DNA of 64,000 nt from Raillietiella orientalis (lineage: Eukaryota). The position numbers and the translations under genes are program-made. The number at the start of each line of letters is the position of its first letter. Position 1 is the first letter of the stretch. The notes beneath the pieces are model-generated. The model saw only the letters and a program-made list of their open reading frames with translations, had not been told where the DNA came from and searched no databases. Where the stretch lies: positions 806,001 through 870,000 of the forward strand of contig JAYWIR010000039.1 of the NCBI GenBank assembly GCA_036172245.1, given 5' to 3'. Below, in pieces: positions 21,140-61,854 of this stretch.

Positions 21140-21197
21140 GTGACCTTCCCCTCTCGCTTCCCTTCGAACTTTCGAATGCTTCTTCTTCTCCTTGCAG

Positions 21198-23158: not shown

Positions 23159-24907
23159 GCCACCCCTGCAGGCTTGCACCTGCCACCAAGATCACTGCCG
23201 GCTCCAGACAGCAGCTCGCGCCCGAACCCGGACCTTCTGCTCGCTCGTCGGCATCCCCCGAGGAACCTCCTCCGCAACCCGCGCTTGAGTGCCACCCACC
23301 CACCTCCTGCAGAACGGCGCTTCCGGCGGTGGGCACCTCGTCGCCACCAAACCCTTCCTGAATTCCGTGCTTGAGGTGTCTCCTGCTCTCCCTCAGAGAC
23401 CGACGCGGCACCCTTCATGGGGAGCGCTAACCCAAAGTCCGCTTCATCCCAAAGAGCCCGTTCCGACCACCTTCAAGCGGTGGCCGGCAGGTGGCAGCCT
23501 CCGCGCGCCTGCCATTCCGGTGGCTCGGAGGAGGATTTTCGGACTACCCCCTTTACCGGTTGGCATTCCACTCTTTCCTTCTACCTCGACGAGTGCCGGA
23601 TAACCCGCGGTGTTGGCGGTTGCGTCGATGATGACTGGAGACGACTCTCAGTGGTGATGCCTTTGCTGCTGTTGACGATGATCACACTTTAAGAACACGT
23701 TACAGCTCTTAAGGACACTTTGCACATCGTAGTGTTTGCAGACCCACTTTTTTCTGGCTCCCTCCTGGCTTGGTGCAGTTCGTGACGTAACCGAGCGTGG
23801 GATGACTCGGGGAACGACTGCGGTTTCTTTCCAGAGGCAGCATCCAGCCAAGGGAGACTCGTATGGCTATGGGTGCAAGAAAGGAAGCTCTCAGAGGCGC
23901 GTTGTTGAGCGTTCATCACACTGCCTTGCTGCCTTCCTTCGTTCGAACCGGCTCGCTTCTCAGAGGACATGGTCCACTGAGAAGGCACTCTCGAGAGAGT
24001 CGCGAGGCAATCGTCCCGTGTTTCAGAGGACAAACTACAGGAGCAGAGAAGGGCAAAAGCTACCGCGAGCTTTGGTGGAGCTGCTTGTACCTGCCGTCTG
24101 TCCTCTGTCCCAGCTGGGTCGCCCTCTCTTTCCTCCCGTCTTCAGTTGTGCGTGGCATTTCCATGGCAGACACCTCAGACAGTCGCAAAGAGTTCCCACT
24201 CGTCTCTGCTCTCCATCCACCGTGGGGAACCATCTGATTCTTCGAGGGCAAGGTTCCTTGGGATTTTCGCCACGGTTGAGACTTGCCCTGGGAGGAGGAG
24301 GATTATGAGGTCTCGCTGAAGAGTAGGGAACTGTGGATCCCTTTTGCGAACTGCGTCTTGAACTGCTCTGGGGCGGGGGAAGGGGTGATGCAAGGCAATG
24401 AAAATATTGGAGTCATGCAGACTTCCTCAGAGTCATCCGAACACCATATCATGGTGGAACGATGGTGATTCTCCCAGTTTTCTCTTCAGGGGCTCCCAAG
24501 AAGAACTGATGTCGAGACACTTGAAGATCCCTGGTGAACACACGACTCGAAAACGAAAGACAAAAAGAAAAACAAAAACAAAAGATGGAGAGATGAGGTC
24601 AGCTTGGCAAGCTTGTTCCTCGACGTCCCCTGGGAAAGCACAGGAAGAGATTTCTGATCCCACCTCCTGTGCGGATGCTCGATGGCAAAGATTCCACTGG
24701 AATCAGGTTGGTACATCTCGAGTGGCACATTACAGGAAAGAACGCTCGTCGGTGCTCGAAAGTTACTTCCAGGAGGCCAGCGACAGCACACTTTCGCGCC
24801 CCTGGGCTGAAATCTGAAGATCGAGTCCGCCCTTCGCTCCGAGAGACCCGGTCTTACTGCCCCTCATCAGCTGAGGCGCCCCTTGGGTGACCTCATCCCG
24901 GATTGCC

Positions 24908-28037: not shown

Positions 28038-31000
28038 GTCTTAAAACGAACCGCAGAGATTTCCATCCCGAAGGAGTGCATCAAAGGTGCTCGAAAGATT
28101 CCAGGATTTTCCCATCCCAGAAAGATTTTTAGCATGGCTGCGAAAGAAAAAAAAGGGGGAGGTGAAGGAAAGAGTGGGAGAACTGTGCTGCGGTGAATAT
28201 CAGTCCTTTAGAAGCCGTCTCTGCAAAAGAGATGGTGGGAGATGCGTGTGTGCAACGTTCCTGAGAGGTTCCTGATCAGGGGATGCTTTTCCAGAGCAGC
28301 GTCCCTCCTCCCTCCCCCTCTCCCGTAGCACATGTGCTGTTCTTCGCTGCCGAATGCTGCCAGCGCGAATCTCCCAGCATGTTCCAGAAGATGTCAGTTC
28401 GCTCGAGATGGGGTGCCCCTTGAAAAGTTTTGCCCGTCCGTCGAGTGTGACACGGGCCCCCTTCCAGCGCCTGGAGTCCATCTGCAGCGGCAGCGCATCC
28501 GGGAGGGCTGGTGACGCTTGAGGACCCTCGCTTTGAACGAACTAGAAAGCCAGGAGCTGGTGCAGATGGTGAGGCGCCTGGAGAAGGCGAGTCCGCCTCC
28601 AGAAAGAGCGCACCCGGAAATGGCAATGCGCCGGGACCTTTCGGCCCTAGCCGCTGCCACCGCCACCAACACCAGAATACAGTTCAAAGCTGGGAAACTG
28701 ACATCCTCCACACGCCTCCAGAAGCTGTGAACAATCTCATCAGCAGACTTTCCTCTCCCTCGTGCTCCCGAGCTCCTGGCGCGCCCCCGATTCGTAAGGG
28801 ACGGTGCCGACGGCGGCACCGGACGCTCCGTAATTTTCTCGGCGCCTCGCAGCGGACTGCGCTCTATCGCTGGCCTCCCAGCGATAGAGCACTCACTCCC
28901 AGCGACCGGAAGAGGGACACGGGGTGCGCTCCTCTCCGGAAGCTTTCTGCTCCCGCCGCAGCCGGCGCTGCGAGCACCCGAGCTTCGTCGTCCAGGGGCA
29001 AGCTTGCGCCGAGCACGCAACGAGGGGGGAGAGGTCTTCGCATAGCCTGCGCGGATCGACGCTCCTCTTCCCCCTCCTCCTCCTCCTCCTCCTCCTCCGG
29101 CGGAAACCACGAGGCGAAAGCTGGCCAAAGGGGCAAACTCCGGGCGCTCCTGACGGCGGCTACGATCCTCACGACAGCGGGACCCGCGCCGCGGCGTCTG
29201 CTTCCCGCGCGCTGCTCCCCGCTTGCAAAGCAGCTGCGTCGTATTTTCCACGGAGTCAGTCTCCCAATGCCTTTCTGATTGTTGAATGGCACCCGAGACG
29301 TTTGACCTGTTTCGCACGTTCCACGGGCTGGCTGCATTTTATTTGCTCGAAGAGGAAAGAGGGAAGCGCGTAGTCGTGCGTCTTTATGTGACCATCTGGA
29401 CCGCTTTCATCGAACTGATTCTCGTCTTGCAAGTGTGGTGGTGGATGCGGGAAGCACGCGAGCTCGGCTCACATGACCTACAGCGCAACAGATGTGTAAT
29501 CGCAGATTATGAGGACGCTGACGGGAACAAACAGGAGAGTGAAGAAAGCACTTGTTCTCCCGGCGGTAATTGAACTGCAGAGTGTCCCTCCGGTTCTTCC
29601 AGCTTTCCGACATCAAGGGAGCGTCGATCCATGTCCGCGCTGGCCGAACCGCGCTCAAGGGGCGTTCGAGGTGATGACGAGAGGCGGCACCGCTGCTGGC
29701 ACCACCTGGGCAAGTGGGACTAGGGGTCTCCCTAGTCCCTCTTTCCCAGGTGGTCTTCAGGAAGACCATCCCGCGCAACCCCGGAGCGATGGACACGCAA
29801 CAGCAGCTCCCCCTTGAAGCTGTTCAGTGCGATCCCCATCCACGAAGCTCACACCACGATGCGGTCCATCCCATCTGGTTCTCATGGAATCGACTCAAAA
29901 ACCCCCGACCGACTTTATATCTCCCGCGCTCTCCATAGCGTTCCGAATCTCCCTGAAAACGAAGCACTTGCGTTTCGCTCTTCATTTCTCGCTCATCATC
30001 AATTCTAAGTTGAAATTGCTCGTTACCCATTACCTCCTCCCTCCTTTCCTCTGCTGCAGAACATCTTTGGAAACACCGATTTTTTTTCCCCCCTCCCTTG
30101 GCGGGAAACACTTTCTCCCGCATGGCGTCCTCCTCCGAGTTGCTTGAGTGTCTGAGCAAACGAAACGATCGGCATCTCCCTGCAGATCGCAGACTTCATT
30201 TCCAAACTCCCTGCTTGTCGCGTTCCTGGACGCGAGAAGCGGGGATCCTCATCTCCTGGCTTCCCGCGCTCGGGCGAGGGACCCGTTCGGTTCAGAAATC
30301 GACTCCAGAAAATCAGGAGGCAAAAAACTCCTCGCGGTCATACGGCACGTGCACGCACTTTGTGTGCTTTTTTTTGTTTGTTTGCTTTCCATTTGTGTCT
30401 TTCGATCCGCGCGGTTTTCCCGATTCTTTCTATCCGTTTCCGCACGCGTGAACAGGGAGAGGCGGGTGCCGACTTCTCCGATGGTCGGAGACCGCAATTT
30501 GCGCAGATTTCGGGTCCACCCCGGCGAGACCAAGTCAGTGAGTGAGTATGCAGCGTATGCATACGGCCTTCTTACGCGCAAATGGGGGGCTTTGGAAACA
30601 GATCCGTTCATTTCTTCCGCTTGCTAATGGTGAGTTGCTCCCTGTGAAGCCAACAGCGCAGTGCTCTCGGAGGTCTCGAGTATTTTCTTAGCTGCCTCTT
30701 TCCCACGGCATCTGGTCATCTGGATGAGGAAAAAATAGGGAAAGCAAAATGCTGTTATGGCCGAAACTTCCCTGTAAAAGAGGAAAACGCTCCTTGCCTC
30801 GCTTCTCATTCTTGTAGTTTTTCCGGGCAGGCCGTTCGACCTCTAAGAAGTCGCCATATCGGTGCCTGCTTGTGGGCGGAAGTGAGCCTGAAAGAAGAGC
30901 CGGACTCCATGGTGATCAGCACCGTGAACACGAGTTGCCGCCAGATCAAATTTATACGTCTTTTCGGCTGTGACGTTGTTTCGAAAGATACGAGACAGAA

Positions 31001-31166: not shown

Positions 31167-31277
31167 GCCTATTAATAGAATGCAACAATACCTCGGGCAA
31201 ACATCGGAACCATTTTCCGCATTAGCCTATTAATAGAATGCAACAATACCTCGGGCAAACATCGGAGCCATTTCCCG
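31167..31277. repeat. 58-bp-period direct duplication
   Basis: GCCTATTAATAGAATGCAACAATACCTCGGGCAAACATCGGA occurs at 31167 and 31225. Confidence 0.95.
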
Positions 31278-35632: not shown

Positions 35633-36427
35633 TTTTTTTCCTTTTTACTTTTCTTTGGCTAACCAAATTCTGAAAAAGCGTTCGCCTCCGTGGGGGGAGT
35701 CCACGAAGCACTTTACCGCTGTTCTCGTCACCCAAGGGTGCGTGCTAACTCTCCAAGTTGTAGAAGATTACCTCGAAGTGATCACCCTATGAATCCAGAA
35801 AGAGCTCTGGAGGAAGAAGTCCGTTCCTCTCTTGCTCTTGGGAAGGTACCCTGAAGAGAACCCTCTCCCTGGTTGTCTCCGAAGAGAATCTCTTCCTTAT
35901 TCTCTCCGTATGGACCCCAAAAGGGGCCGCTGTTCATTTTTTCTCTGGAGATAGCCCGTAAGGGAAGCGCTCCTTGTTTTACACCTCTGAAGAGGACCCC
36001 AGAGAAGGGGCGCTTCCCAATTTCTCCGAAAGGTCCGCTCTCCGGAGGGAGCAGCGCGCTTCTCGACGTTCTGGAGAGGCATTAGTCCACCAACTCCATG
36101 GGGCGAGACGGAGGGTCCTTCTTCCCCACTAGGGGAAAAGGGAGCTCAATTTTCACAACCAGAGGCGAACTCGGAAGGGAGCTGGCTCCTTAATTCCTGG
36201 GAGGACTCCGGAATCCCGGCACGTCAGCGGGGACGTTTGGTTTCCGGCTTCCAACCAGTGCCGCACCCGAAGCCAACCGAGGCCAGCCAGCGTCATCCTG
36301 CGGGGAGAAATAGAAACCCACGACAACGCACCCATTTTCTCGGAGTCGACCCTCAACGTGGGGATTCGAACCCTCAATTCTTGGCACAATGCGGCCGGAG
36401 ACCGCTGTCACTCCGCCGCCAACACGG
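35633..36427 (-). mobile_element. tRNA-headed SINE-like element, copy C (longest, ~800 nt)
   Basis: B-box at 36362-36372 on the minus strand, colinear homology to copies A, B and D, and an A-rich tail at about 35633-35656. Confidence 0.85.
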
Positions 36428-39400: not shown

Positions 39401-42400
39401 CTTCGTCATCGATGCCGTTTATCGCCACGATCCCACATGATCAGCAACATTGGCAGGACCTATCCTTTCGCAGATGAAGAGAGCTTTCTGGAGCCTTCAG
39501 ATAAATGAGAGTGAACTTGGAGAAAGGGTGTAGTGACGTCACTGATAACGTCAATGATAGCTCCTGCGTATATGCGCGGGGGACCACATGACCTGCCGTC
39601 TGTTCCCATGCAATACGCGAAGCGTAAAAAACCCTCTGAGCAGAATGGTTGGAGCGCTCTCACAAAATTATCTGTGAAATGATGAAGTGATGTGCTGAAG
39701 CTGTCCGCACACCATGCGGGCGGAATGCCCGGAGCTGCTGCATGTGCAGACTTGAATTCCGTGAGGCTGATCCCTTCCACAGGGTTTGCGTTTTCGTACG
39801 GATCGAACCCAAAACTTCACTTCTGTGAGCTGCTCTTCATGATTGTTCCAGTAACTCGAAACTGTGGCGTGCCACTGAAATGCCGTGGCCAGTTTCCGAC
39901 CTGAACCGTCACCACGCACGCCAGCTGTGCAAAAATGCGGACTCAACCTCCAGAAGTTGCTGTTGCTCCGCTGCCAGCAGCTCTCCGGAGCCTTCCATGA
40001 AATCCCTGCCGTTTCTTGTACAGCGAGCCACGCAGAGATTCTTTAATCTGGTACTACACCCGGAACCCAAGAACCGAAAAGCAGAAGTGGCCTTGACGAA
40101 GCAAGAAACACCCAACAGCCTTCGAAACTAATATCCGAAGGATGTCATCCATCTACGAATCGGTGCGTGCTGGACGCATATAACAGCTTAATCTAACCTA
40201 GCCCCTTCCTTCCCCCACCGTGGGGAAGAGCACTTTTGATGGCTGTACTTCCTGTGCGATTGTGTAGAAAAAGGGATCCCACGGAGGATCGGACTGATGA
40301 GGAAACATTAAGAGGCAGGGGAATAGAGTAACCGCTAGAAATGAACAAAGACGAATGTCAGCTACGTTTCACTCAGGATGTCCACACAGTGCGGACGAAG
40401 TACTCTGACGAAGAACTCGATCGTCAGACTTGTGGATAAAAAGGTGTTTTACGTGCGCAAGGAATACACAAGTGTACGCTATGTGAGGCTTCACGTGCGT
40501 AGTTGCATCCGTGCACGTTTGTGTCTTGTACATGTACGTCACTCCCTCGGCCGGAGAAGGTCGATGTGTCTCATGGACATTTCTCACCTTCTCAGAGATG
40601 GATAAAATGCACCTCCGGTTCCGGCCGATGGAAATTCGTAAGGATGCATTGCGAACTCGAGCTGCGGAGGTTTTCGACCAGCTCGAGTTCTTTCGTCGCA
40701 GGGTGAAGAATCAAATCAAGACGCACGGTGGAGTAGCGCTGAAGAGTAGCTGACCACTCGACGAAGGCAGCTTTCTCCCTCCGAAGAGTAATGGACTTTC
40801 GTTCGCAGTAGCGAACAAACGAGAGTCTACGGGATTCTCACCAAAGCTCTTTAACGATTTCGGTGGTGCTCCGCGCGTTTACCAGCAAGCACCAAGTCAC
40901 GGCGAATTCTTTTTCCAAAAAACTCAGACTTGACCTGTCCAAATCAGGGGGTTCTGTATTCTCGATGAGCCTCTTGTGATGACGAAAACGGGTGACGAAA
41001 AAGGAAAGGCTTCCTCCACAAGCCGAGGCTGTGCTTGCCTATTACGTGGGCTCACTTTCAGCATGAGAATCCTGGAAACTGAGCTCAGATGTTGCTAGTA
41101 ATCCCAGTGCGGTTTGGACAGAGAATTGGTGATTCGACAGAGTTTGTAAAAGGAAAGAAGAAAAAAAAAAGTCCAGAACACTCCTTACCGGCAAAAGTTG
41201 ACGATGGAGGAGAGCAAGGAACTCCTTGCAGCAATCGGCACGTCATGAGCTCGAGAGAGTCCAGGACTTGCCTCCCAGCTGAAGACTTGGACTTCAAGAA
41301 ACACAGGTACAGTGTCGAAATAAGCCGCATGGCTAGCAGTGAGGAAAAATGTCCGGGAATGGCTTGAATTTGGCAATTTGATGAACAACACGGATTGAGG
41401 AAAGAAACAAAAAAAAAACGCCCGAGGCGATGTGCAAAGAGCCCCACGCCCGACGTGGTTATGGATTTCGTGCTTTCGTGGTCGAAAGAAAAGATGGCCG
41501 CCCTTCTTCCTTCGTGCTACCTAGAGTTTTCCTAGTCGTCGCTTTGTTTGCCTTGCCAAAGGTCGTAAGCTGCCAAATGTTTTAGAACTCAGTGCCGTTC
41601 CACCAGAGGAGAGCATCCACAAAATGCCCCCCAGGAAGGAAAAATATTTCCAAGAAAGTATCTATCGGGGAGTTTTACGACCAAACATTCCCCATGTTCA
41701 ACCTCCATCGAGCAGAACACCACTTTTATGTGTGCTGGCTCTTTGCCAGGCTCCGAAACTGCTCCCCTCATCTAGTGGTCAAAACTAGAACTTCCTCAAC
41801 GTCTCGGGGAAACTTTTACGACGCTCAAACTTCCCAATTCATCAGATCGCTCATAGCGGTCCACATTGCTCATACCAGTCAGTCTTTTGAGCCTCTAGTT
41901 GGAATACTCTTCTACTTCAAATCCTCTAGGGTTGGTACTTGCCTTGATGTACTGAGCGATCCCAGTGCATCAAGGAACGTCGGTGTACCCCACTGAAAAG
42001 ATGGAGCTGTTTTTTTTTTTTTTTTTCCGGGAAAGAAAAAAAAAATCAACAGATGAATTCCAGTAGAGTCCATTGAAAGGGATGATGAACAGGAAAATCT
42101 ATAGTAGGGTGGCATCCATTAGCAGGTTTTGTAACCTGTTCTGTGCAGCTCGCTTGGAGCGGTCGTAACCGCAGATGGCATCTTTCTAGAAAAGCCAAAC
42201 AAGACAAACAAACACAGCGCTGGTGTGAAGGCGAAAAGAAGCGGCAGAAACTTCAGTCCGGCGCAGAAGGTGTGTCTTCTTCCTTCCTCTTCCAGCTTGC
42301 ACTGCAGGTGGAGTCCGTTCGCTCCATTGGTGCTCTTCCGCAGTCTTCTTTGGGTTGTCGTTCGACGAGCTGATGCTCGGCATCCAGGAAGTCTCCTACC

Positions 42401-45400: not shown

Positions 45401-47571
45401 TTGCGGAAGATTTGTTCCGTATCGTAAAGCTTCGTGGTTCTCAGGAAACGCAGGGAGCAATCTTTCTTCGATGCAGGCCGACCCAAGTGAACAACTAGAC
45501 GAACAGGTGGGTGTTTTCACCTGCGAGTCCCTCGAGACAGCTGTAAGAGATGTGGAAGATGAGGGCAAAGATGTCCGCTTAATTCGTCCGACCGAAAGTT
45601 CACCAACGAACGAAATTCTTTGACTCGAATCCAAGTCGCAGCAGAGCGAGGGCGTCCCTGCGACTGCTGGAATCTCACCCCCTGCCCAGAAGATTCCTTC
45701 GCCGCTCGCCCTCTTCGGCGGCGAACAGGAGTTTGCACACGGAACGTGGCTGTGGATGCCGGCAAGTTCACGGTGCCGGAAATTCTGCCTGGAAACCATC
45801 GGATGGCCATCTGGTATGGCTCGAGACCAAGCAGAGAGGCCACCATGCGGCTGGTGTCGCTTCTGAGGCGATCTTTCGCGGTGCATAAAAAACCTGCACT
45901 GCCGCAGATGAAAGCTGTGCTCTGCTTTGAAATTCATCTCACCCAATTCTGAGTTTACTACATAAAGATCGAACTTCCACGAAAGATAATGCTGTCAAGA
46001 GTCCGCAAGATGAAATCTGAAAGAGTAAACCTTTGAGCTTTTTCAGCATCATCAGCATTTAATCATAGGTGAATGTGAGCAACAAGACCACCTCCCAGTT
46101 ACCGGAGCTGTTCTTTAATAGCTCAAAATGCAAATTCGTAACATTCCAGCATGAACCAATCTATAACAGCCTTGCAGATTTATTGCGGCGTTTCGTGAAT
46201 AGAGTGACGGCATTGCATCTTGTGTGCAAGGACATAATTCCTTCATCTCATCGGCAATCAGTAAATGAAGCTCTAAAATGCCTTTGTTTTCAACCAAATC
46301 GGCTTCTTCACCCACGCACTTGGAAGGAAGCAAACGTGTTAACAGCCACATAGACAGAAAGCAGGGCTACCAAAGCTTTCCTTCACACATCAGTATGTAC
46401 CGCCGCTGATTCATCAGTTGCCTCATTAGCACCTTAAGGGAACTTGATTTATAATTTTAATGAACAGCTATAAGAATTTTATGTATTTGTGCTTTTTGTT
46501 TCAACGTGCGATAATCTCCGTTCCCATCATGCATTTCAACATGTCGATTCTTCGGAGCATTTCAATTTTATCTTTGAGGAATAAATGAAGAAAGCGGATG
46601 CTCCTCAACTTCGTAACGCAGGGAAGCATACAGATACTTTCCTGATTTGATTTCAAGAAAATAGCCTCTTCCTTCACAACCCTTTTCCCCTTAGACCATC
46701 CTGCGCCCTCGTGAAAATGCTTGAAGATTGCCTCACATTTGCTGCTCGAAAGCTTTTGTAAACCCGAGTCGTTATACATTTCGGCCTCATTCACTTTCCT
46801 TAACATTTGCTTTGTTTTCTTGTGGCCCGCCTTCAACCACTTTCTGCCACGGATGTGGATTTCGCGCGCCGTGGGCTCCGTTCCCGTCTGTTTCTCGTGT
46901 GCTTCGAGTAGCGCTCAAAAAAACCCCTTCGTAGCACCGTGTCGACGTTTGTGGGGAGGACTTAATGATTCCCTTAACATGAGACTGCGTGCGAAAATTT
47001 TCCCTGACGCACGCGGCATCCAGCTCGGTTCCTGTTCCATTACCGTGCTCATTTGCTTCCTCCAAACTCGACGACTATTCTTTCCCGGTGCAGGGAACAA
47101 AGAGACACTCAGACGCGTTCCTCGGTTCTCCCGTCTCCAACTGCAGGAAGGATTTCGAACGGTACCGCTCATCAGACCTCTGGATTCAGTCAGAACTCCT
47201 TCGGGAGTTTGGCTTGCGCTGATCGCGAGAACGTACCAAGTCCTTCATCTCGAAACCGGGACCCGAAATCCCAAACGAGGTCGAACTTCGTCTTCCCTGA
47301 TTCTCCCACTTGCGTCCCGTCTCCGTTCCTGTTTCTTGCCCGGAGCTTCGTTCCTTTCACTCTGTGGGGAGAGCGCTGGCATGCCGATTCATTCCATTGC
47401 GTCATCAATTAAGCGTGTTGTCTCGCTCTCCAGTGCTTCGTTGACCCTGCTGCACGTGGAATCGCGCCTCATCGGGCAAGCGCTGCTCGCTGTCATCCAA
47501 ACATCTTGTAGACATCTTGCATTCGATTGCTCAGTGCCTGAACATTCCATCCCTTTTACTTCAGTTCCCAT

Positions 47572-48290
47572 CCCTCCCGCGCGTGGTACCAGGAGTCACG
47601 GTTTCGAATGGCCAATGTGGAGGATCGACGCGAGGACGATGGGGGCGTCGTGGGTTTCGATTCCCTCCTCCACCCGCCTCCCCGGCAGGATGGCTTCGGG
47701 TGCTGCAAGCTGATGCCCCCGTTGACGTGCCGGGAATGGAAGTTCGCCCTCCTGTTGAGTCCTTCCAGGAATCAAGGAGACGGTACTTTACGGGGTTCCC
47801 CTCCGGTTGTGACAATGGAGACTTCCCCTTCCTCGAGGAAGAGTCCTCCATCGCATAGAAAGGTGCTGGTGGACTCGTACCTCCCAGAGCGTCAAGAAGC
47901 GCGCTGCTCCCTTCGGAAAGCGGGCCCTTCAGAGAAATCGGGAAGCGTCCCTCCGGGATTGTCTTCAGAGGGGTAACAAGGAGCGGTTCCCTTGCGGATT
48001 CTCTCCGGAGAAGAAAGGGGGAGTGAAGCTATCCGAGAGTTCCTCCGGTGAGAATAAGGAAGAGTTCCTTATTCTCACCTTCGGGAGTTCCCTACCCAGA
48101 GTAAGAGGAGCACAATCCTGCCTTCGGAGCCTTCCTGGATTCATAGGGGTGGTCCCTTCGGGTTGCTCCCTAACTCTTGAGGAGTCACACGTATCCTCGG
48201 ATGGAGTGGACAGAGTTAAAGAACTTCGTGGACCCCCTCTAAGGAGGCGGACTTTGAGAACCAAAAAAGGGTAAAAGAAAAAAAAGGAAA
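47572..48290 (+). mobile_element. tRNA-headed SINE-like element, copy A (slightly 5'-truncated)
   Basis: CGCGTGGTACCA head with a degenerate B-box (GGTTTCGAAT), colinear body and A-rich tail at 48263-48290. Confidence 0.85.
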
Positions 48291-49449
48291 GATTAGCTGG
48301 AACACAGCTGGCCGTGCCCCACAAAGTGTAGTCGCTCCCAAGTGCACACTTCATTCAAGAGTCACAAATAGGCAGGTTCCCTCATGCAAAAAAATTAATA
48401 ATTAAAAAAAGAATGCTGCCTTTTTTTTCTAAAAAAAAAAGGAAAAAGGAAACTCTTCTAGTTCCATACCTCTAATTGTTTTCCATTGCCCAAAGCAAAC
48501 CAACTCCAACTTTCTAATTGTCCCTAACATCTTTCTCTTTTCATTTCCTTGTCAGCTTCCAGGAGTGGTTCATTTTCTATCATTATTTTTTTTAGGTAAG
48601 ATTTCTTGTTCCATGTTCCGGTATCCACGGAATCCCTGTGGAACAAGACATGCACTCAAACAAGAGAACTGGTCTCCAACAGCGAGGTTCTCAGGTATTC
48701 CCTTGGGTGATTGGCGGCGACTCTGGTATTCGCTGAGGCTACACTTTGACCTTAGCTGAAAGGCCGAGAAGGGGTGATCCTCTTTGAGGAGAAGGTGTGA
48801 GGCAGACTATTCTCGCGCTGTTCAGGTCTCGTTGCGGCGTCATCAACAAGCACTACTTGCCCTCCCTTCCGGAAATACCACTCCAGTTCTTTCGGCTCAA
48901 TCTGCTTTGCAAGGCTTCGCTTCTGCTTAGCTGAGTTTGCAGACTTGTCGTTCGCAGAACGGTTCTCTTGAGCGAACAAGCGCCATTGCCATCCTCGCTC
49001 TTTTAGGCTTTCTTTCAGTTCCTGAGCTGCGACCAACATTTCACGAGGAAATCACGTGTGAATAAACACATTGCTGATTCGTCTTCCTCGGAGATCATGC
49101 CGCATTGGACTCGATAACTGGACCTAGGAATGTGGCTTTTTTTTTTTTCTGACAACTGAGAAAGACCCTTAGGTTCCCTTTGAGGAAACATCTTCTGCAG
49201 TCCTCAGTGTTGGTGCTTCATCGAGACGGAACGCCTGTTTTTCAAGGCGGTGAAGTACAAAGCGAATTTTCTCTGAAGAACAACCGACAGCAATGATCTT
49301 CCCTTTGAAAAACGTTCGTGGAAGCAACTGGCGTCCTGCTAATTGAAAGTTCCCCTCTGGAACTCGGCGCATTTATTGCAGCTTTGTGCGCAATTCCTGC
49401 ATCTCTGAGACACGGTCCATTCCTACCCGGGAAGCGCACTCGGCACCTG

Positions 49450-51066
49450 CCAAATAACGCGTGTTGGTAGAGCACCTTTGTGGCCCCCCTCCTCCGCCTC
49501 CTATTTTTTTGCTTGCCCTTCCCTTCCCCCCACTTCCCTAATCGGCCAAGCTCCGGGCGCAAAGCCTGTTGGGGAACGCTCTCTGGGGACCTGCGAGGTC
49601 CAGGATCCGACTCAAGGACTTGGCTGGACCGCGTCGGGATGCCGGCTTAGGCATCCCGACGCTCTACAGGATCGGGCGGCAAGTGCTGCTCCGAACTCTG
49701 GCACTCCGCGCCAAGCTGTGGACTTCCCCGTTGTGCGCGCCTGCCTGCGTCATCCTGCGGAGATGTGCCGGCAGCGGATGTCTGCTCTCGCTGCTGCCGG
49801 ACACCCACTACAGGGTATGGGGATTCGACTTTTTCTTCAGACAACGCGCCTCCCTAGTGGAAGCCCGGCCGTGGATCTCCTGCCGCCCAATAAACTACAA
49901 TGCTTGGCTGCAGGAGACTGCTGAGTCCTGGCCTGCATTCCAGGGAATGCGCTCTCAAGATGTTTAACCCCTGCGGCATCTGCTATCAGGACCACTGGAA
50001 GTGGTGATCAAGGACGCAGGTAAGTGGACGGCCCTGGCCGCCACACCCGTTGACGCACGCTCTGCCTGCCCTCGGGGCAAGAGATGACAGTACCCTACCG
50101 GCGAGTTTTTTTGCTCCATCGCGGGAAAAACAAAACTCCTTGGTGGCTGGAAGACTCGCGAGTTGGCGGATGCTGCGATTCCTCGTGTTGCAGAGACAGG
50201 ACTCGTTCAGTGGAGCGAATTTATGAGTGTCCTCTGAAGAACCTGTGGTCCCTCCTCATTGCATGAACATTTCAGTGTTCCCGCTCTCGTAGAAACAGGA
50301 AGTGCTGCTCTTCCTCTACTGGAGTTTTTCAGTGCAACGAGCGGCTCCACCGAGTTTCCACAAGGGTTGCATCCCCGAACTGTGCCAGGTGCGTGTCGGC
50401 GGAGTCCACCGAACCTGCTTTTGGACTGCGGTGCCCTCCAGGAACTGTGGCAGTGGCTGAAAGCAACGCTCCTACACCAGGAGGACACCTCCCGAGATGT
50501 GCCGCGACGGTTCTTCGCGTCGAGAGGACTCTCGATAGGCGCGGTGATTGCAACCATGGGTTGCATCCGTGCCATCGCCACAGCCCGACAGGAGCCCGAG
50601 ACGACCACGTAGAGAAGGTTGGTCACCAGGATGGCAGCAGCCGACATCAGGACATCTGCAAGGTGGTCTACCTGGAACAAGTAGTAAAGGAGGAGATCGC
50701 CGCTATCCAGAGCTGGTTGGTGGACAGTTAGGACCGGCGGATTCCTGTGACACTTGTCTCCTGCCTTTCTTTTTTTCTTCCTTTCATTCCCTATCTCCAT
50801 TGGCTCCGTAACTTCCCATGTTTTCTTTTTTGTTATTTTCATGTTGATGCATACGGAGCGAACTCAGAGATCCCTGCCCCATCCCAAACAATTTATTTTA
50901 TTTTTTTTTGCTGTCCCCTTGTCCCTCTCCCATTCCGGACATTCCGCTATATCGGCCCGCCTGTCTGTGGACCCTCCCCTTGAATCTTTGTTGTCTTTGG
51001 CTGGAAGATGCGTTCCCAAATGGTTTATTCTGTTTTTTTTTTTTTTTTTCATAAAATAAGCGCCCC
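49450..51066 (+). mobile_element. Decayed, 5'-truncated L1/Tx1-type non-LTR retrotransposon (post-RT region, zinc knuckle, 3' UTR)
   Basis: NALWGPARSRIRLKDLAGPRRDAGLGIPTL resembles the FLW...L..P...GGLG.P motif. GVFQCNERLHRVSTRVASPNCARCVSAESTE/LLLDCGALQELWQWL is a frameshifted zf-RVT-like CCHC region. Stops and frameshifts are present, with a T-rich 3' UTR. Confidence 0.8.
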
Positions 51067-52576: not shown

Positions 52577-53476
52577 CTGAAACGAAAAAAAACCAGTTCC
52601 ACGGGAGGATTTCGCGGGAGGAATGGGTGCATCTGCTTCGGTGGGGAAGGAGGGAGAGGCAAAAAGGGAACAGATCCGAAGCCAAGAAAGCGTCTCCTCC
52701 GCGGGACAATCATGCCGAATTCCCCGGGTATTCTTGGAGAACGCAGTCTGCCCTCGGCGTGCCGTCTCGCGAGACGGCACGCCCAAGGGGCGAAGTGGGT
52801 GGGTCGGCCGGGGCAGCAAGACTTTGGAGAACTCTCGCCGCTTCTTCTTCTTCTGCTGCTGCTGCTAGGCGGGGCTGCAGCAAGTCCGCAGAGCGCACGT
52901 CTCCCATCTGCAGCCGTCTCAGCGGCCGACGCAGCTTCCGCGTTCGCAAAACTCCCCGCGGAGAGGCAGCTGTGCGCATGGGCTCCGGATGCCACGCGCT
53001 CCTTTCCCCCCGGCAGCATCCGCGGAAAAGGACCGGAGCTGAGAGACCCCCGCGAGTAGTCGCGGGCGAGCCGACGGCGCGAGGCGGTTCTAGCATCCAC
53101 GTGTGCCCGAAGGAAGGAGGAGTGAGGCTGCACGCCTCCGCAAATGCCGGCCATTCCGTGGAGCCCAGGGTCGACGGAGTGCTGCATGACCTTCGGGCTG
53201 CCTGATGGTCACGTTGCCGCGATCTTCGACCATGGAGACACGGGTTATGCCCGTCCCTTTCATACTCTACGCTCATCTATGCGCACGCAGATGGCATAAC
53301 GGCTTTCTATTTACTTCTGGTGACCACCGTTCTCCTCGTTCGGTGATGGTCAGAAAGCCCGCGTCTCGCAGGAACCCGTGGAAAATCGCCAAGAGTCAAT
53401 TTCGCGTATTTGGAGACTCGGCCTGCCTTTCGAAAAAAGGGTCCAAGACAGAGGGGGGAAGACCGAAGTTGCTCAC

Positions 53477-53695
53477 CATCGTTCAAATGAACGATCAAAT
53501 GGCTGTTCCCCAGGGTTGTGACGGTATCTCCGTCCTTTAGCTGTGAGATCTCCACAATTCCTTGCACGATGAGATTTGACAGCAACTTGTATCTTAGAGC
53601 CTCATCTGTGATGAACACATCTCCAGCGTCCGCAGGTAGAAGAAACACGAATGCACTCGCGACCGGTAGAAAGAAGGTGTATTCTTCTTCTGGAT
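53477..53695 (-). CDS. Exon 2 of the FAS1 domain protein
   Basis: Acceptor TATTTATTTATCAG|, donor GATG|GTGAGC. YTFFLPVASAF resembles the FAS1 H1 motif (YTVFAPTxxAF), and KLLSNLIVQG...LKDGDTVTTLGNSHLIV resembles the FAS1 core. Confidence 0.85.
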
Positions 53696-54392
53696 CTGAT
53701 AAATAAATACAAAGGTATGTAGCTTGCAAATGACAGAGCCGTTCGCACATGCTTTCTTCAGAGAGCTTCTCGCTTCATCAATTCGTCTACGTACGCAAAG
53801 GGAAGACAAGAACGTGTCCGTTGACTGAAGTGATGTCTGTCTGATGGAGAAAAGCGTAAAGTGGTTTGAAGAGATGAGGGAGGATTTCTCCAAATTGTAT
53901 GCAGTGGAGTGCGTGGATGCTGATTTCGATACTCATGTTAGCCTCCATTTTGTTCGTTTGTTTGTTTTTCGGTTTGGCAGTGTTATGGTATGCAACGTCG
54001 AAACAACCGCGTACCAGACACACACCCAGAAGGTGCTGCTGTGCAAGAATACTGAGTACAGCCGAGAGTCATGAGACCACTTCTGCTCCTGCCAAGCCGC
54101 GACTTTCTCGAAGAGAAAAACCCCCCGAGCCTAGCAACCTTGCGGTGTCTCACGGAAGGCAACTCTGTCCCTGCGACAGAGCTGCGTCCAAAGCTTCTCA
54201 TCCCACCAACACGAAGTCCCTGTGCGGAATGGGCGCACAGGAAACGATCGTGTCGTGTGCACCCATGCCTGTTGGCTGCTGGACCTTACACAACTGGGAA
54301 GTTCCTTGAATTGAATATCTGTGGTACTGTTTTTTCGGGGGACATGTCGACTTTTGAAAAACAGAAGCAACATCTTAGCGTAAGAGAACTAC

Positions 54393-54594: not shown

Positions 54595-57500
54595 TTCTTC
54601 AATTGATTACTGAAAGACAAGACATTGTAGAAAGTGTGAGTGTTGCATCATTAGATATCGGCATTGCATGCGCGAATTCGCTGGCATTTTCGAGAACTTT
54701 TTGGAAGTTTGCGAATGCTACTGCTCTGGATATCGCACGCGCAGGAAGGTAAATCTTCGTCATAATAGTCGCGTGAAGCATCTTTGTGAAAATTCATCCG
54801 CACGACGCCTGTGGATCGTCTCATCAGAGGGCTTCCTACTGACCGCTGCGCGTTTCGACGCAACGAAGGGATTTCCGCCCTCTCCTACTAAAAGAGCGAG
54901 AAAGGCAACAAGCAGTTCAGTAGGACTGCTTGTTGGGAATGAGGGAAACGGATGCGCATCTCAGGTTGGCATCTCGCTCCTCTCTGTCAGCACCCCACGG
55001 AAGGAGTTGGCCAAAGACGGAAAGAGGGACGCAGAGGTCCATTCCACAAAAAAACGCATGAGTTTCTTTCCCTGTACGCGGTGCCGCTCCCAGAAACATC
55101 CCGCTCAGCCTGCGGCAGCGCTCGTGAACCAAAAACGGGCATTTTGCTGATCCTCAAGCGGCGCCACTCGGACTCTTTCGCTACGCTCACCACGGACACC
55201 CACCGCGACAAAGGGGAGGTCCGCGTCGTTTCCCGGGAGTGGAGCAGGCACAAAGCGAGCAACGAGCGCATTTTTCTGGAAGACTCCACCCAATCGCTGA
55301 TTGAGGGTTTCGTCAACACGTGCTGCTTCTCCATGTGGCTGACACTGCTTGCAGGATAAGCAAGAGCTCAATATTGCAATGGGGAAACTTTATTAAAAAA
55401 ACAAACAAACAAACGGGCAAGAGGTAAACACCGGAGGAAGCAGACTGAATGTGAAGGTCGGAGAGACGAGCGGCAGAGTCCTCGGTGGTCGAGACGGTTA
55501 GCTTTCGGGTGCCAAGGCCGGCCGCAAAGATGCGAGGCGCGCGCTGCCACAGCTGGACCGCACGCCTAAGGGAAGCAGGATTCCCGTTTTCAAAAACTCT
55601 TCCCCGGAACGGGACGAATGGATCTCGTCCGCCAGCACCGCGATGCGGAGTGGCACCGCTGGTTGCAGGAGGCAGGAAAGAAACGCGCGAGCCTGGGAGC
55701 GAAAATGGGATCGGCGTACTGGCGCCACTCTGTTCACCACTGCTTCCACTTCATGAGTCACCGGCATTGCTGCTCCGTCGCGACCCCCTTCGGGTTGAGT
55801 CTGCGCAGCGAAAACGTGCTCCCTGCGGGAGCTCTCGACAGACGGAAGCTGCGTTCCTTGGAGCCCTGCAGGGTTTCGCTTCTGATCAGACTGAGTGAGC
55901 TCTCCCGAAGCGCCCGTGTTTTTCGTTGCTGGTTCGGGAAGCAAAGCCTTCCGGAGGACCTGCCGGTTACCAGCAATCCCACTCCCGATCCCCTGAAAGT
56001 CCAAGCAGAGTGCTCCCTATTGCCGATGACTCCTGATGGGCGAGGAATGCCTTGCATCTCCCTAATTCGCTTGCACGGTTATTTATGGGTCCGCGGCTCG
56101 GAGCGGATGGTCGGATGCCTTCTCCACCCCCAATTTCTGGCCTCTTCTGGCCTCGCTAATTTCCAAGACGTGCGCCCACTCCCTTTTCTCATTCGCGAAA
56201 GTTCCTGCTCCTGTAAAGCCGCACATCCCGTGGTGTTCTACGCATCAGAGAATGGGAAATTCACCATGGGGGACTGACTCTCTTTGTTCGCCGTTCTTGT
56301 GGTCCCCGGTAGGAGGAGCTGCTGAGACCCTGGGACTATCTTTGAACCTCTACACTTGCAGCCTCGCATCAAGTGCTAGAGCGTTCGGGACGCGCTTCCC
56401 CTCGAGTGAGGAGGAGTCCTCGGAAAAAACATCCTGCGTCAACGAATCTCCCCGAAACAACGTACGGCGAACCGCCACGGAAGGTGCTCTCAAAAGCGGG
56501 AGTCGCAACACCGCAGCAAAGAGGCGGCTGGATCACGGAGATCCGATCCGCAAGCGTTAGGCGACGTATTGCATGGTTACCAGTCATCACGAAAACCCCG
56601 TGCGCGAGCGCAGGCATGGAACTTGGAGAAACGCTTCGCGCGCCGTTGTCCCCAAACGGCGTCCGCTTCTGCTAAGCCCCCTGCTTCCCCGTCCGCCTTT
56701 TTGGGGACTGCCTCGAAGGCTACAAAAGCGAGAGCTGGCGCGCGCCAGGAATACCATCTAGGAACCCCCTCTCCTCTTTCTCCAAAACCCTGCTTTTTCC
56801 ATCAAGGGTTTCCGAAGCATTGCTCTGCTTTTGAAGTTCTTAGCGAAAGGAAGTCGCAAAAAAATCTCTCGAGAGGGCCCATTGGTCTTAGCTCTTTCCA
56901 GCTGCTCCTCTTGCATCCGCCTCTCGTGAGAGCGAAGGATGTGCTAAATATAGAGGAACAGCTTCCTTGTTTCGAAACAAAGGCCACTTGCAAATGGAAC
57001 CGGAAGTGTGAGATTTCTAGGTGGACCGCGCTGCCGCAGATCAATGATGGAAGCGCGATTCGCGGAGGAGGTTCGTCCGCTGCAGTCCATTTCAGGCCTC
57101 AGGTCAGATCGCCTGCAGCCCAGCAGATGATTCGAACTCCATAGGCATGAGAATGAGTCACACAGTGTTTGGTGATAGCGCACCCCTGACGCCGAACAGT
57201 ACTGCGCGGGAAACACCCTTCAGCGTGAATCATGCGTCATCGAGAAAGGGTAGATGGGGAGAGGGATCCGTGCAGGCGAAACGGATGGATGAGATGGAGA
57301 TGACGACGAAAGTCTCTCTGCGTATTAGCAGCAGCCTTGAGAGCGAAAGATCGAAAGCATTCCGTCAGGTAGGGCGGCGTTGCTCCGAGACCATGCCGAG
57401 GCAAGCAAGGCAAAAGCAGGGGAGGGAGGGAGGGAGGCCACGCCGCGGGAATCTCCGACGGAAAGGGCGAGCTGTAGTCGAAGACGAAAAGCCACCTAAA

Positions 57501-60310
57501 ACCGGACATCGGGGGGAGGATGGCATGTATGCGCCCCGAAAGCGCCTTTCCATCGTTTCGCTAACAGCAGAGGGATCGGAAGCGCGTCGCCCACGAGATG
57601 GTTGTCAGGCCTGCCCGGGCAGCGTTGTCGGCGTGTAAGAAACGGAGGAGCCATGTCTGGGGGGAATACCGGGAGTCCTTAGAAGGAATCGAAGTCTGTA
57701 ATGCATCGGGGCTGGCGCAATGGGAAGGGATGCGTGTAATTGGCGCGATTGCGTGCATTTCTCCACACCCCTAATGCGCCGCTAGTCGAAACTTTCGTTT
57801 CCGGCTGCGGCACAGAGGATTTCCTCTGTTTCCTTCCCTTTTCGCGCCATCTCCCGGCTGGCAACAAAGAAGGGAAGGGCGCACTACCCTTGCGGGAAGC
57901 CTTCGGAACTGCGTCATCGACGATAATGGTCACTGGCCGCAACGTCAAAGCTTCGGAAACTTGAGGGTGAAATGCAAAAGTTGCTGCCGACAGAACACAG
58001 GGTGAAACTTCGGCAAAGATCGGAATGGCCGCCGGTGTTTCGAGGAAGCGATCCTACCACGCGGGGGAGGGAGGGCGACAGTGCGAACAGGAAGCGAGGG
58101 AAGGCAGCAGAGTGCATCCTTGGAGTGCTCGAGGGATCGGATGAGAATTGGGATCCACGGCTTCCCACGGCCGCGATCTCAGCGTTCGGCAGACCACCAC
58201 CGACTCGCGCCCGCCTTGCTCCTGGGAAAGAGCGGAAGGTTCCCTGCATGAGCCCCTGGAGGGACGGGGAACGATGGCGCGTTCTCAAGTCACGACGGCA
58301 CGGAAGTGCATGCCTCCGTCAGTCTCCGATCGCTGGCTATTCCTTCCGGTAGGGAGCCAGCCTCGGTTACAGTACAGCAAGAGTTGGAGGCCCTCCGTTT
58401 TGCCCGCCCCGTCCGTCATCCGAGAGCCTCCTTAAAGCAAACGAAACGATGAAACTTTCCGGGTTTGGTGTGGCTGGCTGTTCTCCCCGAAGAAGGGAGG
58501 CATCCGATATGCTTATCGTGGATGCACAGTTTCTCAGAGCGCAGAAGGAATAGGTCGCCTGCAATGAAAAGGAAAGGTCCTTTGGAAGAAGTGGAAAAAA
58601 AACGGAAACGCTTGATGCATCCACATCGATCAAAAGTGAAAGTTTCGTATCCATTAGTTCAGAAGTCCCAACCGCTTGAGTGAAGAACGATGTGCAGACA
58701 ATCAGGAAGATGACTGCTCGAGATTAAATTAATAACCGAGTCCATCTAGCATCTCTTTGGGAATTCCTGACGAGCAGCCTCGAAGCAAGCCGTGTGTTCA
58801 CTGTTGATGACGTGTGTTCGGTGCTGTGTTGCGGGGACTACGATCTAATCAAGATTTTCAACTTTAAACCGAACATACACTCCCTACATATGGCCTGCCC
58901 CATCGCTTCGCATGAGCAAGAGGGGCACGACCATTCAGTCAACCTTGTGAAGGAGAGAATGCGAAGGAAAAGAATGGTGGCTGCTGACCCCCAGCCAGAG
59001 AATCCCGGGAGACAATCCTAAACGCTGCTCCTGGATCTGGCAATCCAGAACGCGGGTGCAGAGTTCACCACACCCAACGCTCCTCCTTTGCCTGCCCATC
59101 ACGAGGACTCAGCGTGACCATTGCACCGAGCAGGAGCAGTTCCTTCTCTTCGCCGACGGTGGAGCGCCGACTTCAGCGAGGGCGGTTAGCGGTGGGATCA
59201 CTGTGACCCGAAGAAGGCCGGGATCTCCAGATTCTCGGGCAAAGACAGAAAGAATTTTCTTCTCCACCGTGCTGCTCTTCAAGCAGGGATGGTGGGACGG
59301 TGAGAGGAAGTGGGTGCGTTCCAGCGACGCATCCTCGGTTGCGGACAACTAGGACGAGCGCTACTTCCAGAGAGCTTCCCATTGGATGACAGGATGGCGG
59401 AAATGGTGGACAGTTCCTCCCCCAAACATGAATTGCAGCGTAACGAATTCGAATACCAATCTCCACGAGCTAAGAAAAAGCTTCTACGAGGGAGGGTGGT
59501 TGCTGCCCGTTCAGACCACGCGAGCAGCCACCGATGACTTCCGCGATTCAGTTCCGCGATTATTTCAGTTTTTTTCCGGGAAGCCACAGCGTGTTTTTGA
59601 CGGCAGTTTCAGCGTGACCGCCTGATGTCATTGCTTTATCTGGGGAGGAGCATCTCTGAGATCTCGCACTCGCGTGATTCGATCGCACTTGCGTTCCACG
59701 ATGAAGAGATGACGCCGCTAGCGGGCTGCAACCGGCGAATTTTCTTTGGGAGTTGAAGGGGGTTCGAAGAAGCCCGTCGGCATATCGCTCGAGCACCTCT
59801 CTGCCTCGTAATGAGCTCAGGCGGCGATCCGCTCTGCAAGCGACAAGAAGCCAGCGCTCAGGTCAGTCCAGGGCAACTGTAAAAGAGTCACTCCACGTGC
59901 CCCTTCTTCCGCCAATCAATTCATCGTGCACGCTCGATTTCAAGACGATCGAATCACACGCTGCGTCCCTCTTCGTGCGGGGATGGCCAGCAGCCCAACT
60001 GAGCCATTCCCGGTAGGATCCTCCCGAAGCGCGAATAGTGCTTTTTTATCTTTCTAACTATGTCTTCTTCGATCCCGTCCTTCTGGATTCCCGATCGATC
60101 GCAAGCAGGAAGCCCTTCCTTCCGCTCCCTCCGAATTTCTGTGCGCAGCGGAAGACGCGGCTCGCGTCCGACAACGCGTAGGCGAAAGGGTGTGCCCGAA
60201 CGCGCGCGCCACGGCATGGCAACTCCTCCGTTTTCCACCGGAGGCACACACGTGACATGGGGCATCGCTTCCCTACTTCCCCGCCGTTCCTCAGCGGCTG
60301 TAGGTTCGTT

Positions 60311-60932
60311 CGGTTGGCAGCCGTGTAGCTGCGGCCTCCGCCCGCGTGGTACCAAGCGTTATGGGTTCGAATCCCCACGTGGAGGATCGGGAAATGGGTG
60401 CGTCGAGGGTTTCGAGATCCTCTATCCCGCAGGATGACGCTGGCTGGCTTGGTGGGAGCCGGATGCCCCGTTGAGTGGGCGGGATCTCCTCCGGAGTCCT
60501 TCCAGGAATCGAGGAGCGCCGGTTCTTTACGGGGTTCTCCTCTGGTTGTGCAAATGGATCCGCCCCTTTCCTGAAGGAGGGGGCGGATCCATTCAAGGAG
60601 CGGCGAGCACCATGGAGCGGGTGGATTGGAACGGCCCTTCAGGAAAAATTAGGGAGCGTCTTCGGGGTCCTTTTCAGACGAGTACCAACAAGGAGCGAAT
60701 TCTTTCCGGAGAAAATGAGGAAGAGGGTGGTTCCCTCCCTGGAGTAAGAGAGGAACGGAATCCTTCCTCCGGAGCCCTTCCCGGATTCATAGGTCGGTCC
60801 CCTCCCGTGGCACCCCCTAACTTGAAGAGTTCACACGCATCATCGGGTGGCGGGGACGGTGGCAGGGAGTTCTGCGGGTCTCCGGCCGAACGGTTCCTCG
60901 AGCGCTCAGCGAACCAGAAGGAAAAAAGAAAA
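60311..60932 (+). mobile_element. tRNA-headed SINE-like element, copy B
   Basis: Perfect Pol III B-box GGTTCGAATCC at 60364-60374. The body is colinear with the copies at 35.6-36.4 and 47.6-48.3 kb (e.g. CAGGATGACGCTGGCTGG, GAGTCCT(T/C)CCAGGAAT, GGATTCATAGG). A-rich tail. Confidence 0.85.
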
Positions 60933-60951
60933 CTGTCAGCGACGTCTGAAA

Positions 60952-61854
60952 TCTGCTGACTGCCGAGTCCTCGCTTGGGAGCCGCCGCCGCGCACATTCC
61001 TCCGTCGAGCGGATGGCGCACCAGGTTGTACACGTACTGCTGCGCTCGTGGCACACGTGTGCGCGCGTTCCGGCACGAGTGGAGGGGAGGGAGTGGGACT
61101 TTTCAGGTGGGCGGGTATCCATACGTGCTTGCGTCCACATCCTGCCCACGCGCGCGCGGGATGTGGAAGAGCCTCGAGCGAGCGTGCGTGATTCCACATC
61201 GCGCGCGCCCGGGAAACCTGCGTGCAGCACCAGAGGATCGTATGGAGCGAACGCGGGAATCCTCGCGTGGAACCATACCTCAGGAACCGGAAGCCGATCT
61301 GCTCCTTACCGCTGCTCTTCCAGAGACGTTTACTGTACCCTACAACATCCACAGAATATGCTGGGCGTTCGCAATGGTCCTGGGTCGGGCGTCCTAAGTC
61401 TGCTGACTGCCGAGTCCTCGCGTGGGAGCCGCCGCCGCGCGCATTCCTCTGTCGAGCGGATGGCGCACCAGGTTTTACACGTACTGCTGCGCTCGTGGCA
61501 CACGTGTGCGCGCGTTCCGGCACGAGTGCAAGGAGGGGGGGGGGCATTTTTCAGGTGGGCAGGTATCCATACGTGTTTGCGTCCACATCCTGAACACATG
61601 CGCGTGTCCTCTGCCCACGCGCGCACGGGACGTGGAAGAGCCTCGAGCGAGCGTGCGTGATTCCACGTCGCGCGCGCCCGGGAAACCTGCGTGCAGCACC
61701 AGAGGACCGTATGGAGCGAACGCGGGAATCCTCGAGTGGAACCCTACCTCAGGAACCGGAAGCCGATCTGTTCCTTACCGCTGCTATTCCAGCGACGTTT
61801 ACTGTACCCTACAACATCCACAGAATATGCTGGGCGTTCGCAATGGTCCTGGGT
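60952..61854. repeat. Tandem duplication of ~450 bp (60952-61385 and 61399-61854)
   Basis: Near-identical copies. Copy 2 carries a 21-nt insertion. The duplication starts just after the tail of SINE copy B. Confidence 0.95.

Follow-up and report, generated by a model that had tools for sequence, protein, structure and literature searches.

The 64,000-nt stretch of Raillietiella orientalis DNA analysed here (assembly GCA_036172245.1, contig JAYWIR010000039.1, positions 806,001 to 870,000; "the window" hereafter) contains several strongly diverged copies of one repeat. The question that it raises is whether the hairpins found at the same sites in these copies were kept by selection on an RNA structure. 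A sequence-only reading had answered yes, and had described a long, tRNA-headed, heavily folded RNA polymerase III (Pol III) retroelement or non-coding RNA family whose source lineages were selected for their RNA structure by way of compensatory changes. Our analyses lead to another answer, i.e. that a conservation of RNA structure by compensatory change is not established. The reading that we favour, with about even confidence, is that the copies are dead members of one long, non-autonomous retroposon family that resembles short interspersed elements (SINEs), that their ancestral hairpins decay neutrally, and that single stems were perfected by template switching at the DNA level.

The family was collected within the window with BLASTN and nhmmer, the latter with a profile of the copies A, B, and C and later with a four-copy profile. 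The window contains these three long copies, the 5′ half of a further one (D), a rearranged copy (E), and one fragment that consists of the tail only (Table 1). The earlier claim that A to D are diverged copies of one family is borne out by nhmmer E-values down to 1e-245 and by pairwise identities of 0.64-0.71, which are star-like. The elements are 640-815 nt long, they are dispersed over both strands, and their flanks are unrelated. The 5′ end is sharp and common to B, C, D, and E, and the A-rich tails of A, B, C, and the fragment at 879-998 are alike and have the form AAAAGGAAAA. The open reading frames (ORFs) that overlap the copies are without any Pfam family. Because the copies are dispersed, have the 5′ end, the B-box, and the A-rich tail in common, include truncated examples, and have no coding capacity, we regard them as a long SINE-like retroposon family.

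The family is unclassified in a comparison with Rfam, and to this extent the former statement that it cannot be assigned to a named family holds. Rfam 15 yielded 0 matches at the gathering score and 3 unrelated weak matches at E<=1. A 26-mer from the head had 0 loci in metagenome contigs, and a gapped family pattern, which matches 3 of the 3 long copies, had 0 loci in metagenome contigs as well as 0 in genome contigs. Searches of paper texts with short element strings returned only unrelated Pseudomonas primer lists, a result of little weight since consensus sequences usually sit in figures or supplements.

Copy D ends near model position 448, and some 1.15 kb of unrelated DNA separate it from the tail fragment at 998-879. 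This fragment could be either a strongly 5′-truncated separate copy or the 3′ end of D, displaced after an insertion into D.

Exact matches to the Pol III B-box GGTTCGANNCC occur only twice in the window, in the heads of B and C and nowhere else, as expected from the proposed internal promoter. The heads of D and E have 1 mismatch each, and in A the box is interrupted by an insertion. The second B-box-like motif reported for the family, GGGTTTCGA, was also found, at 60407-60416, about 44 nt past the first. A resemblance of the heads to a D-loop (GTTCGGTTGG/GTGTTGGCGG), seen by eye, is looser than a match to the A-box. With relaxed settings, ARAGORN predicted sub-threshold cloverleaves in B (-ps90, a setting with 3 calls in the whole window), in E (88 nt, 23084-23171, in the same register and geometry as in B, at the noisy setting -ps80 with 60 calls per window), and in the head consensus (92 nt). 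The anticodons of these sub-threshold predictions are GCG, GCU, and GCG for B, E, and the consensus, respectively. Judged by these predicted cloverleaves, a tRNA origin of the head is plausible but not shown, and the description "tRNA-headed" has sub-threshold support; the stricter searches are weighed below. Avoidance of T runs was considered as a Pol III signature and rejected, the number of runs of four or more T (0-3 per copy) being about that expected by chance.

The hairpins were present as described. Their sequences were confirmed at the sites in question, including the hairpin that follows TTGTG (H1; A 47815-47851, B 60553-60593, as well as C and D), and so were the UNCG loops, i.e. 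C(UUCG)G at 47911-47916 in A and also in D, and C(UCCG)G in C. In each of the 4 copies with this site, H1 surpassed 200 dinucleotide shuffles in stability (Table 1). The antisense strand behaves like the sense strand, with z values of -2.35, -6.71, -2.22, and -2.31 for A, B, C, and D, respectively. The motif YTYCGG has a density of 4.6-12.7 per kb in the copies, counted on their sense strand, as opposed to 1.9 per kb elsewhere in the window, and nhmmer profiles built from one part of the element weakly match other parts of the same copies. The body is thus made of degenerate repeats of a hairpin-like module with YUYCGG motifs that are dispersed and not tandem. A tandem-repeat body was considered and rejected; Tandem Repeats Finder detected none, and the internal similarity is only degenerate and dispersed.

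The presence of H1 in 4 of 4 copies despite a divergence of 30% is an observation that fits selection in source genes. This explanation states that several source genes had to keep a multi-hairpin fold, for the stability of a Pol III transcript or for recognition by the enzyme of a long interspersed element (LINE), and that compensatory changes were fixed there. It has precedents, as stem-loops with compensatory changes in the 3′ tails of SINEs and LINEs are described in the parts of PMC3747384 and PMC4824008 used here. We nevertheless consider it unlikely, if still a serious rival, for the reasons that follow. The minimum free energies (MFE) of the whole elements are at the level of shuffled sequences (z -0.13 for B, -0.96 for A, and -1.01 for C), and the antisense fold of whole copy B has a z value of -2.40. 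The elements therefore do not fold better than shuffles, contrary to what the proposed selection on structure had led one to expect. Local folding with a maximal span of 40 nt gave z values of -0.80, -0.67, and -1.72 for the sense strands and about -2 for the antisense strands, and four control stretches ranged from -2.22 to +0.19.

Covariation was tested with 3-4 copies, all of them from this one window. For A, B, and C, RNAalifold predicted 168 pairs, of which 16 have a double change that preserves the pairing. The covariation term, +6.49, is unfavourable, and the consensus energy differed from that of 100 column shuffles by a z value of -1.60 for the sense and -1.42 for the antisense strand. 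Significant covariation across the whole element was thus not found. For the element as a whole, this and the folding at shuffle level are outcomes that the sequence-only reading had itself named as refuting it, the former being worded for a large alignment.

The retention of pairs was also quantified. The local fold of one copy was predicted, and the pairs that are still standard in another copy were counted; for the null, the residues of the other copy were reshuffled among positions with the same base in the first copy. With the MAFFT alignment and helices of at least 4 bp, the z values were 2.0 for the sense and 3.1 for the antisense strand. They fell to -0.34 and 0.15 for helices of at least 6 bp and were -1.15 and 0.93 for those of at least 8 bp (sense and antisense, respectively), i.e. 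the longer helices are kept no better than in the null. Because MAFFT misplaces the 3′ arm of H1, arm-wise and domain-wise realignments were used. After realignment by domains, 1009 of 1364 sense pairs were kept compared with 969.5 in the null, and 899 of 1230 antisense pairs compared with 860.8. Kept pairs thus exceed the independent-substitution null by about 4%, or about 3 standard deviations per strand, a value that is inflated by non-independent ordered comparisons. Among the comparisons of single hairpin domains, 3 of the 132 on the sense strand and 3 of the 138 on the antisense strand reached P<=0.02, about the chance number. The folds contain 102 G.U pairs in sense and 70 in antisense; composition alone predicts a ratio of 1.18, from which this does not differ significantly.

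Taken together, there is a weak tendency of the arms to stay complementary, and it is tied to neither strand. The kept-pair excess is equal on both strands and the folds are at shuffle level, and both findings speak against selection on RNA structure in the source lineages. Two further results point in the same direction. The stem-loop nearest to the 3′ tail is broken in B, in C, and in the tail fragment, and perfect palindromes are present outside of the family too (see below).

H1 itself gives a similar picture. Of its 12 ordered sense comparisons with alignment arm by arm, 2 had P<0.02 (0.0046 for A to B and 0.013 for D to B). Both involve the perfect stem of B, and the comparisons among A, C, and D have no signal. 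When pairs were counted in the register of B, 77.3% of the cells pair versus 74.9% after shuffling (88 of 500 shuffles reach the observed value), i.e. the signal is at shuffle level. When the H1 of B was randomly substituted at 15-35%, the mean MFE ranged from -19.7 to -11.0 kcal/mol. Copies A, C, and D, at -14.8, -18.4, and -20.9, fall within the simulated distributions, and 2.4-80% of the simulations are at least as stable. Hairpins derived by mutation from a B-like H1 match the strength of the H1 in the other three copies, and therefore the persistence of H1 needs no selection.

Another earlier argument was a stem directly in front of TTCATAGG (H3), in which an A-U pair was said to be truly swapped for a G-C pair. 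All three forms are present, namely TTCGG/CTGGA in A, TCCGG/CCGGA in B, and TCCAG/CTGGA in C, A being the G.U intermediate between the other two. The swap as evidence for selection does not hold, since it is a double transition of the kind that is expected by chance. The U-A versus C-G swap that adjoins the UNCG loop is a double transition as well. Any double transition converts one Watson-Crick pair into another. Transitions between the copies amount to 0.15-0.17 per C/G site, and about 0.026 chance double transitions are expected per pair and comparison, i.e. 3-4 among 110-150 predicted pairs. Hypermutability of CpG was tried as the cause of the TCCGG/TCCAG swap and rejected, as the transition values are 0.150 at CpG and 0.167 elsewhere.

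These numbers, the star-like identities, the bracketing of A, C, and D by the H1 simulation, and the shifting of the H1 covariation with register and gap placement would all fit pure neutral decay, i.e. one burst of insertions from one hairpin-rich source, with apparent compensation resulting from chance and the choice of alignment. As a complete explanation, however, we judge it improbable, more so than selection in source genes. At a distance of about 16% from the source, a perfect repeat of 28-30 nt survives with a probability of about 0.005-0.008, and A and B have one each. The stem in A, moreover, bears a complementary insertion of 6 nt, and the summed excess of kept pairs described above is not accounted for, inflated though it is.

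The perfect stems are not a peculiarity of the family. Inverted repeats with arms of at least 12 nt and loops of 3-15 nt occur 7 times in the window compared with 0.0 in 10 dinucleotide shuffles; for arms of at least 11 nt, the values are 10 and 0.6. Five of the 7 long perfect repeats are in unique DNA outside of the family, and the family contributes one each in A and B, at different sites. The outside repeats, further ones of which are listed in Table 1, are GC-rich; their arms measure 10-13 nt and their loops 4-14 nt, and the one at 29716 lies in a longer quasi-palindrome of 10+10 bp. They could stem from template switching or represent functional hairpins, both of which are possible. Within the family, the site in copy C that is homologous to the perfect repeat of A (35877-35909) has a 10-bp stem with a 9-nt loop. 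Relative to C, the 15-bp stem of A has 6 additional nucleotides, TTCCTT, which are exactly complementary to the AAGGAA next to them, and one T-A/A-T swap. At about 2320-2350, copy D alone has a perfect 7-bp stem; the stem that A, B, and C have in common at this site is imperfect.

The quasi-palindrome model of template-switch mutation, which is reportedly due to Ripley, concerns changes of this kind. According to the part of PMC8794818 used here, template switching yields perfect stems together with multibase compensatory changes in one event. Perfect stems that are private to single copies, a complementary insertion, a signal that is alike on both strands, and perfect palindromes in unrelated DNA together lead us to read the perfected stems as products of template switching. 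We infer this from changes that are unpolarised at 2-4 copies per site, and it fits at least as well as selection.

The favoured history would then be as follows. A source copy would have been transcribed from an internal promoter of the Pol III type in the degenerate tRNA-like head, and a LINE enzyme, by way of the A-rich 3′ end, would have copied its RNA into DNA at new sites. The body was probably rich in hairpins from the outset. After insertion, the hairpins would mostly decay neutrally, so that every copy would retain a weaker hairpin at the corresponding site and a few "compensatory" double transitions would arise by chance. In single copies, hairpins may have been re-perfected, i.e. 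at 60553-60593 in B, at 48047-48079 in A, and at about 2320-2350 in D. If replication switched template from one arm of a quasi-palindrome to the other, several bases could be altered or a complementary stretch inserted at once, and this process appears to be active across the whole window and not in the family alone. Neutral decay, double transitions, and palindrome correction at the DNA level explain most of what is seen. Two things are left beyond chance, namely arms that are slightly more complementary than expected, on both strands alike, and a few perfect stems; they are most readily attributed to the same DNA-level correction.

A more far-reaching version, which we put forward only tentatively, is that template switching is unusually active in this genome and repeatedly restores perfect palindromes, in unique DNA as well as, by preference, in those hairpins of the family that decay. 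The family would then record single mutation events that imitate RNA compensation in the absence of selection.

Several observations weigh against the combination of a SINE-like family, neutral decay, and template switching. With regard to the family, no target-site duplication of at least 8 nt flanks A, B, C, or D, and flanking direct repeats of 7 nt are at the chance level of about 0.9 expected per copy; the old age of the copies could have erased such duplications. The length of 640-815 nt exceeds that of most SINEs. None of the 14 matches to the A-box TRGCNNAGTGG in the window (at most 1 mismatch) is in any head, about 30-60 nt upstream of the B-box. ARAGORN with default settings called a tRNA in 0 of 5 heads and none in the head consensus, and the Rfam tRNA model had no match at E<=10 in the 181-nt heads of B and C, so that the tRNA part of the head description lacks the backing of both. 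Internal runs of T4-T5 (1 in B, 3 in C, 0 in A and D) would hinder a Pol III transcript of 700 nt in B and C.

With regard to the hairpins, the family makes up 6% of the window yet contains 2 of the 7 long perfect repeats, which indicates that the family itself matters; this share fits hot spots of quasi-palindromes or selection alike. H1 counted in the register of A has 83.9% paired cells versus 76.2% after shuffling (5 of 500), and in 5 of 14 pairs both partners have changed, versus 1.9 in shuffles (9 of 500); slid controls are lower. This covariation is suggestive, and it is also what selection in source genes is expected to produce; the register was picked after the fact and the result depends on the alignment. 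Lastly, four copies with unpolarised ancestral states cannot separate template switching from selection in source genes.

A view of the copies as something other than SINEs, i.e. as structured non-coding RNA genes kept in place or as pieces of something longer, e.g. the untranslated ends of a LINE, would accommodate the lack of target-site duplications, a length above the usual SINE range, and the unrelated 1.15 kb between D and the tail fragment, but is very unlikely given unrelated flanks, copies on both strands, truncated and rearranged copies, no Rfam match, folds at shuffle level, and no reverse transcriptase domain in the window, where a Pfam search of 194 ORFs of at least 118 aa gave only a weak zf-MYND and a Fasciclin domain, both outside of the family.

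The coordinates are collected in Table 1. The window as a whole has a eukaryotic appearance and a GC content of 54.7%, and the observed/expected ratios are 0.91 for CpG and 0.42 for TpA, i.e. a strong depletion of TpA beside nearly normal CpG. Long ORFs are scarce. In the 907-aa ORF, about 680 residues are exon-like, and the ORF stops within the zf-MYND motif, as if before an intron or a frameshift; a protein search found no relatives of it among proteins of near or longer length. The Fasciclin ORF is probably one exon of a spliced gene, and no homologue was found among longer proteins. A 58-nt stretch at 60943-61000, which adjoins the 3′ side of copy B and does not belong to the family, recurs about 450 nt further on at 61390-61447 with 91% identity.

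Table 1. Positions of the family copies, their motifs and hairpins, and other features of the window
Feature	Position	Strand	Details
Copy A	47542-48299	+	nhmmer E 4.6e-229; 5′-truncated, first part of head missing
Copy B, near full length	60298-60940	+	nhmmer 60291-60940, E 7.6e-183; 5′ limit from relaxed ARAGORN
Copy C, longest	36455-35641	-	nhmmer E 4.9e-245
Copy D, 5′ half only	2600-2147	-	nhmmer 2580-2147, E 2.9e-57; 2600-2147 with the four-copy profile
Copy E, rearranged	23171-22184	-	three nhmmer pieces within 23157-22184, E 5.2e-15, 5e-08, 1.1e-05
Copy E, pieces	head 23171-23034; body 23019-22913 and 22250-22184	-	
Tail-only fragment, terminal GCGAACCGAAAAAGGAAAAG	998-879	-	nhmmer E 2.2e-15
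tRNA-like head of B	60298-60385	+	88-nt sub-threshold cloverleaf with long variable arm; ARAGORN -ps90
B-box / T-loop motif GGTTCGAATCC in B	60364-60374	+	exact match to GGTTCGANNCC
B-box of C	36362-36372	-	
Second T-loop-like motif GGGTTTCGAG in B	60407-60416	+	3′ hairpin arm; 5′ arm is GAGGATC
H1 in A	47814-47852	+	z -2.48
H1 in B	60553-60593	+	perfect 14-bp inverted repeat, 18 bp counting G.U; z -6.47
H1 in C	36107-36151	-	z -2.76
H1 in D	2269-2307	-	z -2.80
H3 stem TCCGG...CCGGA in B	60768-60785	+	directly 5′ of TTCATAGG; one pair varies: G-C / G.U / A-U
Perfect 15-bp inverted repeat in A	48047-48079	+	3-nt loop; z -5.27
A-rich tail of A	48263-48291	+	
A-rich 3′ tail of B	60916-60933	+	
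A-rich tail of C	~35641-35660	-	
A-rich tail of the fragment	879-900	-	
Perfect inverted repeats outside the family	26825-26859, 28861-28890, 40653-40690, 49631-49662, 52756-52783		arms 12-13 nt
Further unique perfect inverted repeats outside the family	22292-22318, 25869-25901, 29716-29739, 54906-54935		
907-aa ORF	19085-21808	+	partial zf-MYND, E 4.5e-4, below Pfam cut-off
Fasciclin-domain ORF	53310-53774	-	E 6.3e-06, above Pfam cut-off
Tandem repeat, 58-nt unit	31167-31277		1.9 copies, 96% matches
Tandem repeat, polypyrimidine 22-23-nt units	11375-11568		
(CAC)n and (AGG)n runs	9518-9930		within ORF 9281-10873

As a SINE family, the repeat is ordinary except for its length and its modular, hairpin-rich body, and the more unusual lead is the window-wide excess of perfect short palindromes. 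The family also teaches caution, as hairpins at the same sites and paired stem changes in diverged repeats do not alone show selection on RNA. If the palindrome excess turned out to be genome-wide, the organism would be suited for measuring template-switch mutation against dated repeat copies.

The 7SL-derived SINEs Alu and B1 keep their fold among subfamilies by compensatory changes, and the fold of Alu and its protein partner are known. The idea of SINE source genes that are selected for RNA shape is the likeness to the present family, which differs in that its head has another origin and that no fold of it passes a test. With tRNA-related SINEs, it shares the dispersed, non-coding copies on both strands, the sharp 5′ end, the B-box GGTTCGAATCC, the A-rich tail, and the 5′-truncated copies. 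It is unlike them in its length, in having no canonical A-box and only a sub-threshold cloverleaf, and in having no detectable target-site duplications.

A parallel to the proposed RNA selection is offered by the stem-loops of stringent-type SINE/LINE 3′ ends, which, in the parts of PMC3747384 and PMC4824008 considered, show compensatory mutations, are located in the last 50-80 nt, and are shared with LINEs. As in these, hairpins occur at the same sites in related retroposons and differing stem bases still pair. In contrast to what those parts describe, the best case of the present family, H1, lies midway along the body, and the stem closest to the tail is not kept. Even if the sequence-only reading were right, it would concern a known phenomenon in a new family, because such SINE/LINE stem-loops are already described there.

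The template-switch mutations of PMC8794818 are, as far as the portion used here describes them, a further system with which the present observations can be compared. That study rests on reconstructed ancestors, whereas the direction of change is unpolarised with the four copies of this window and the mechanism is deduced from their pattern. The likeness comprises perfect stems in single copies, clustered changes, a complementary insertion, an equal signal on both strands, and an excess of palindromes elsewhere in the DNA.

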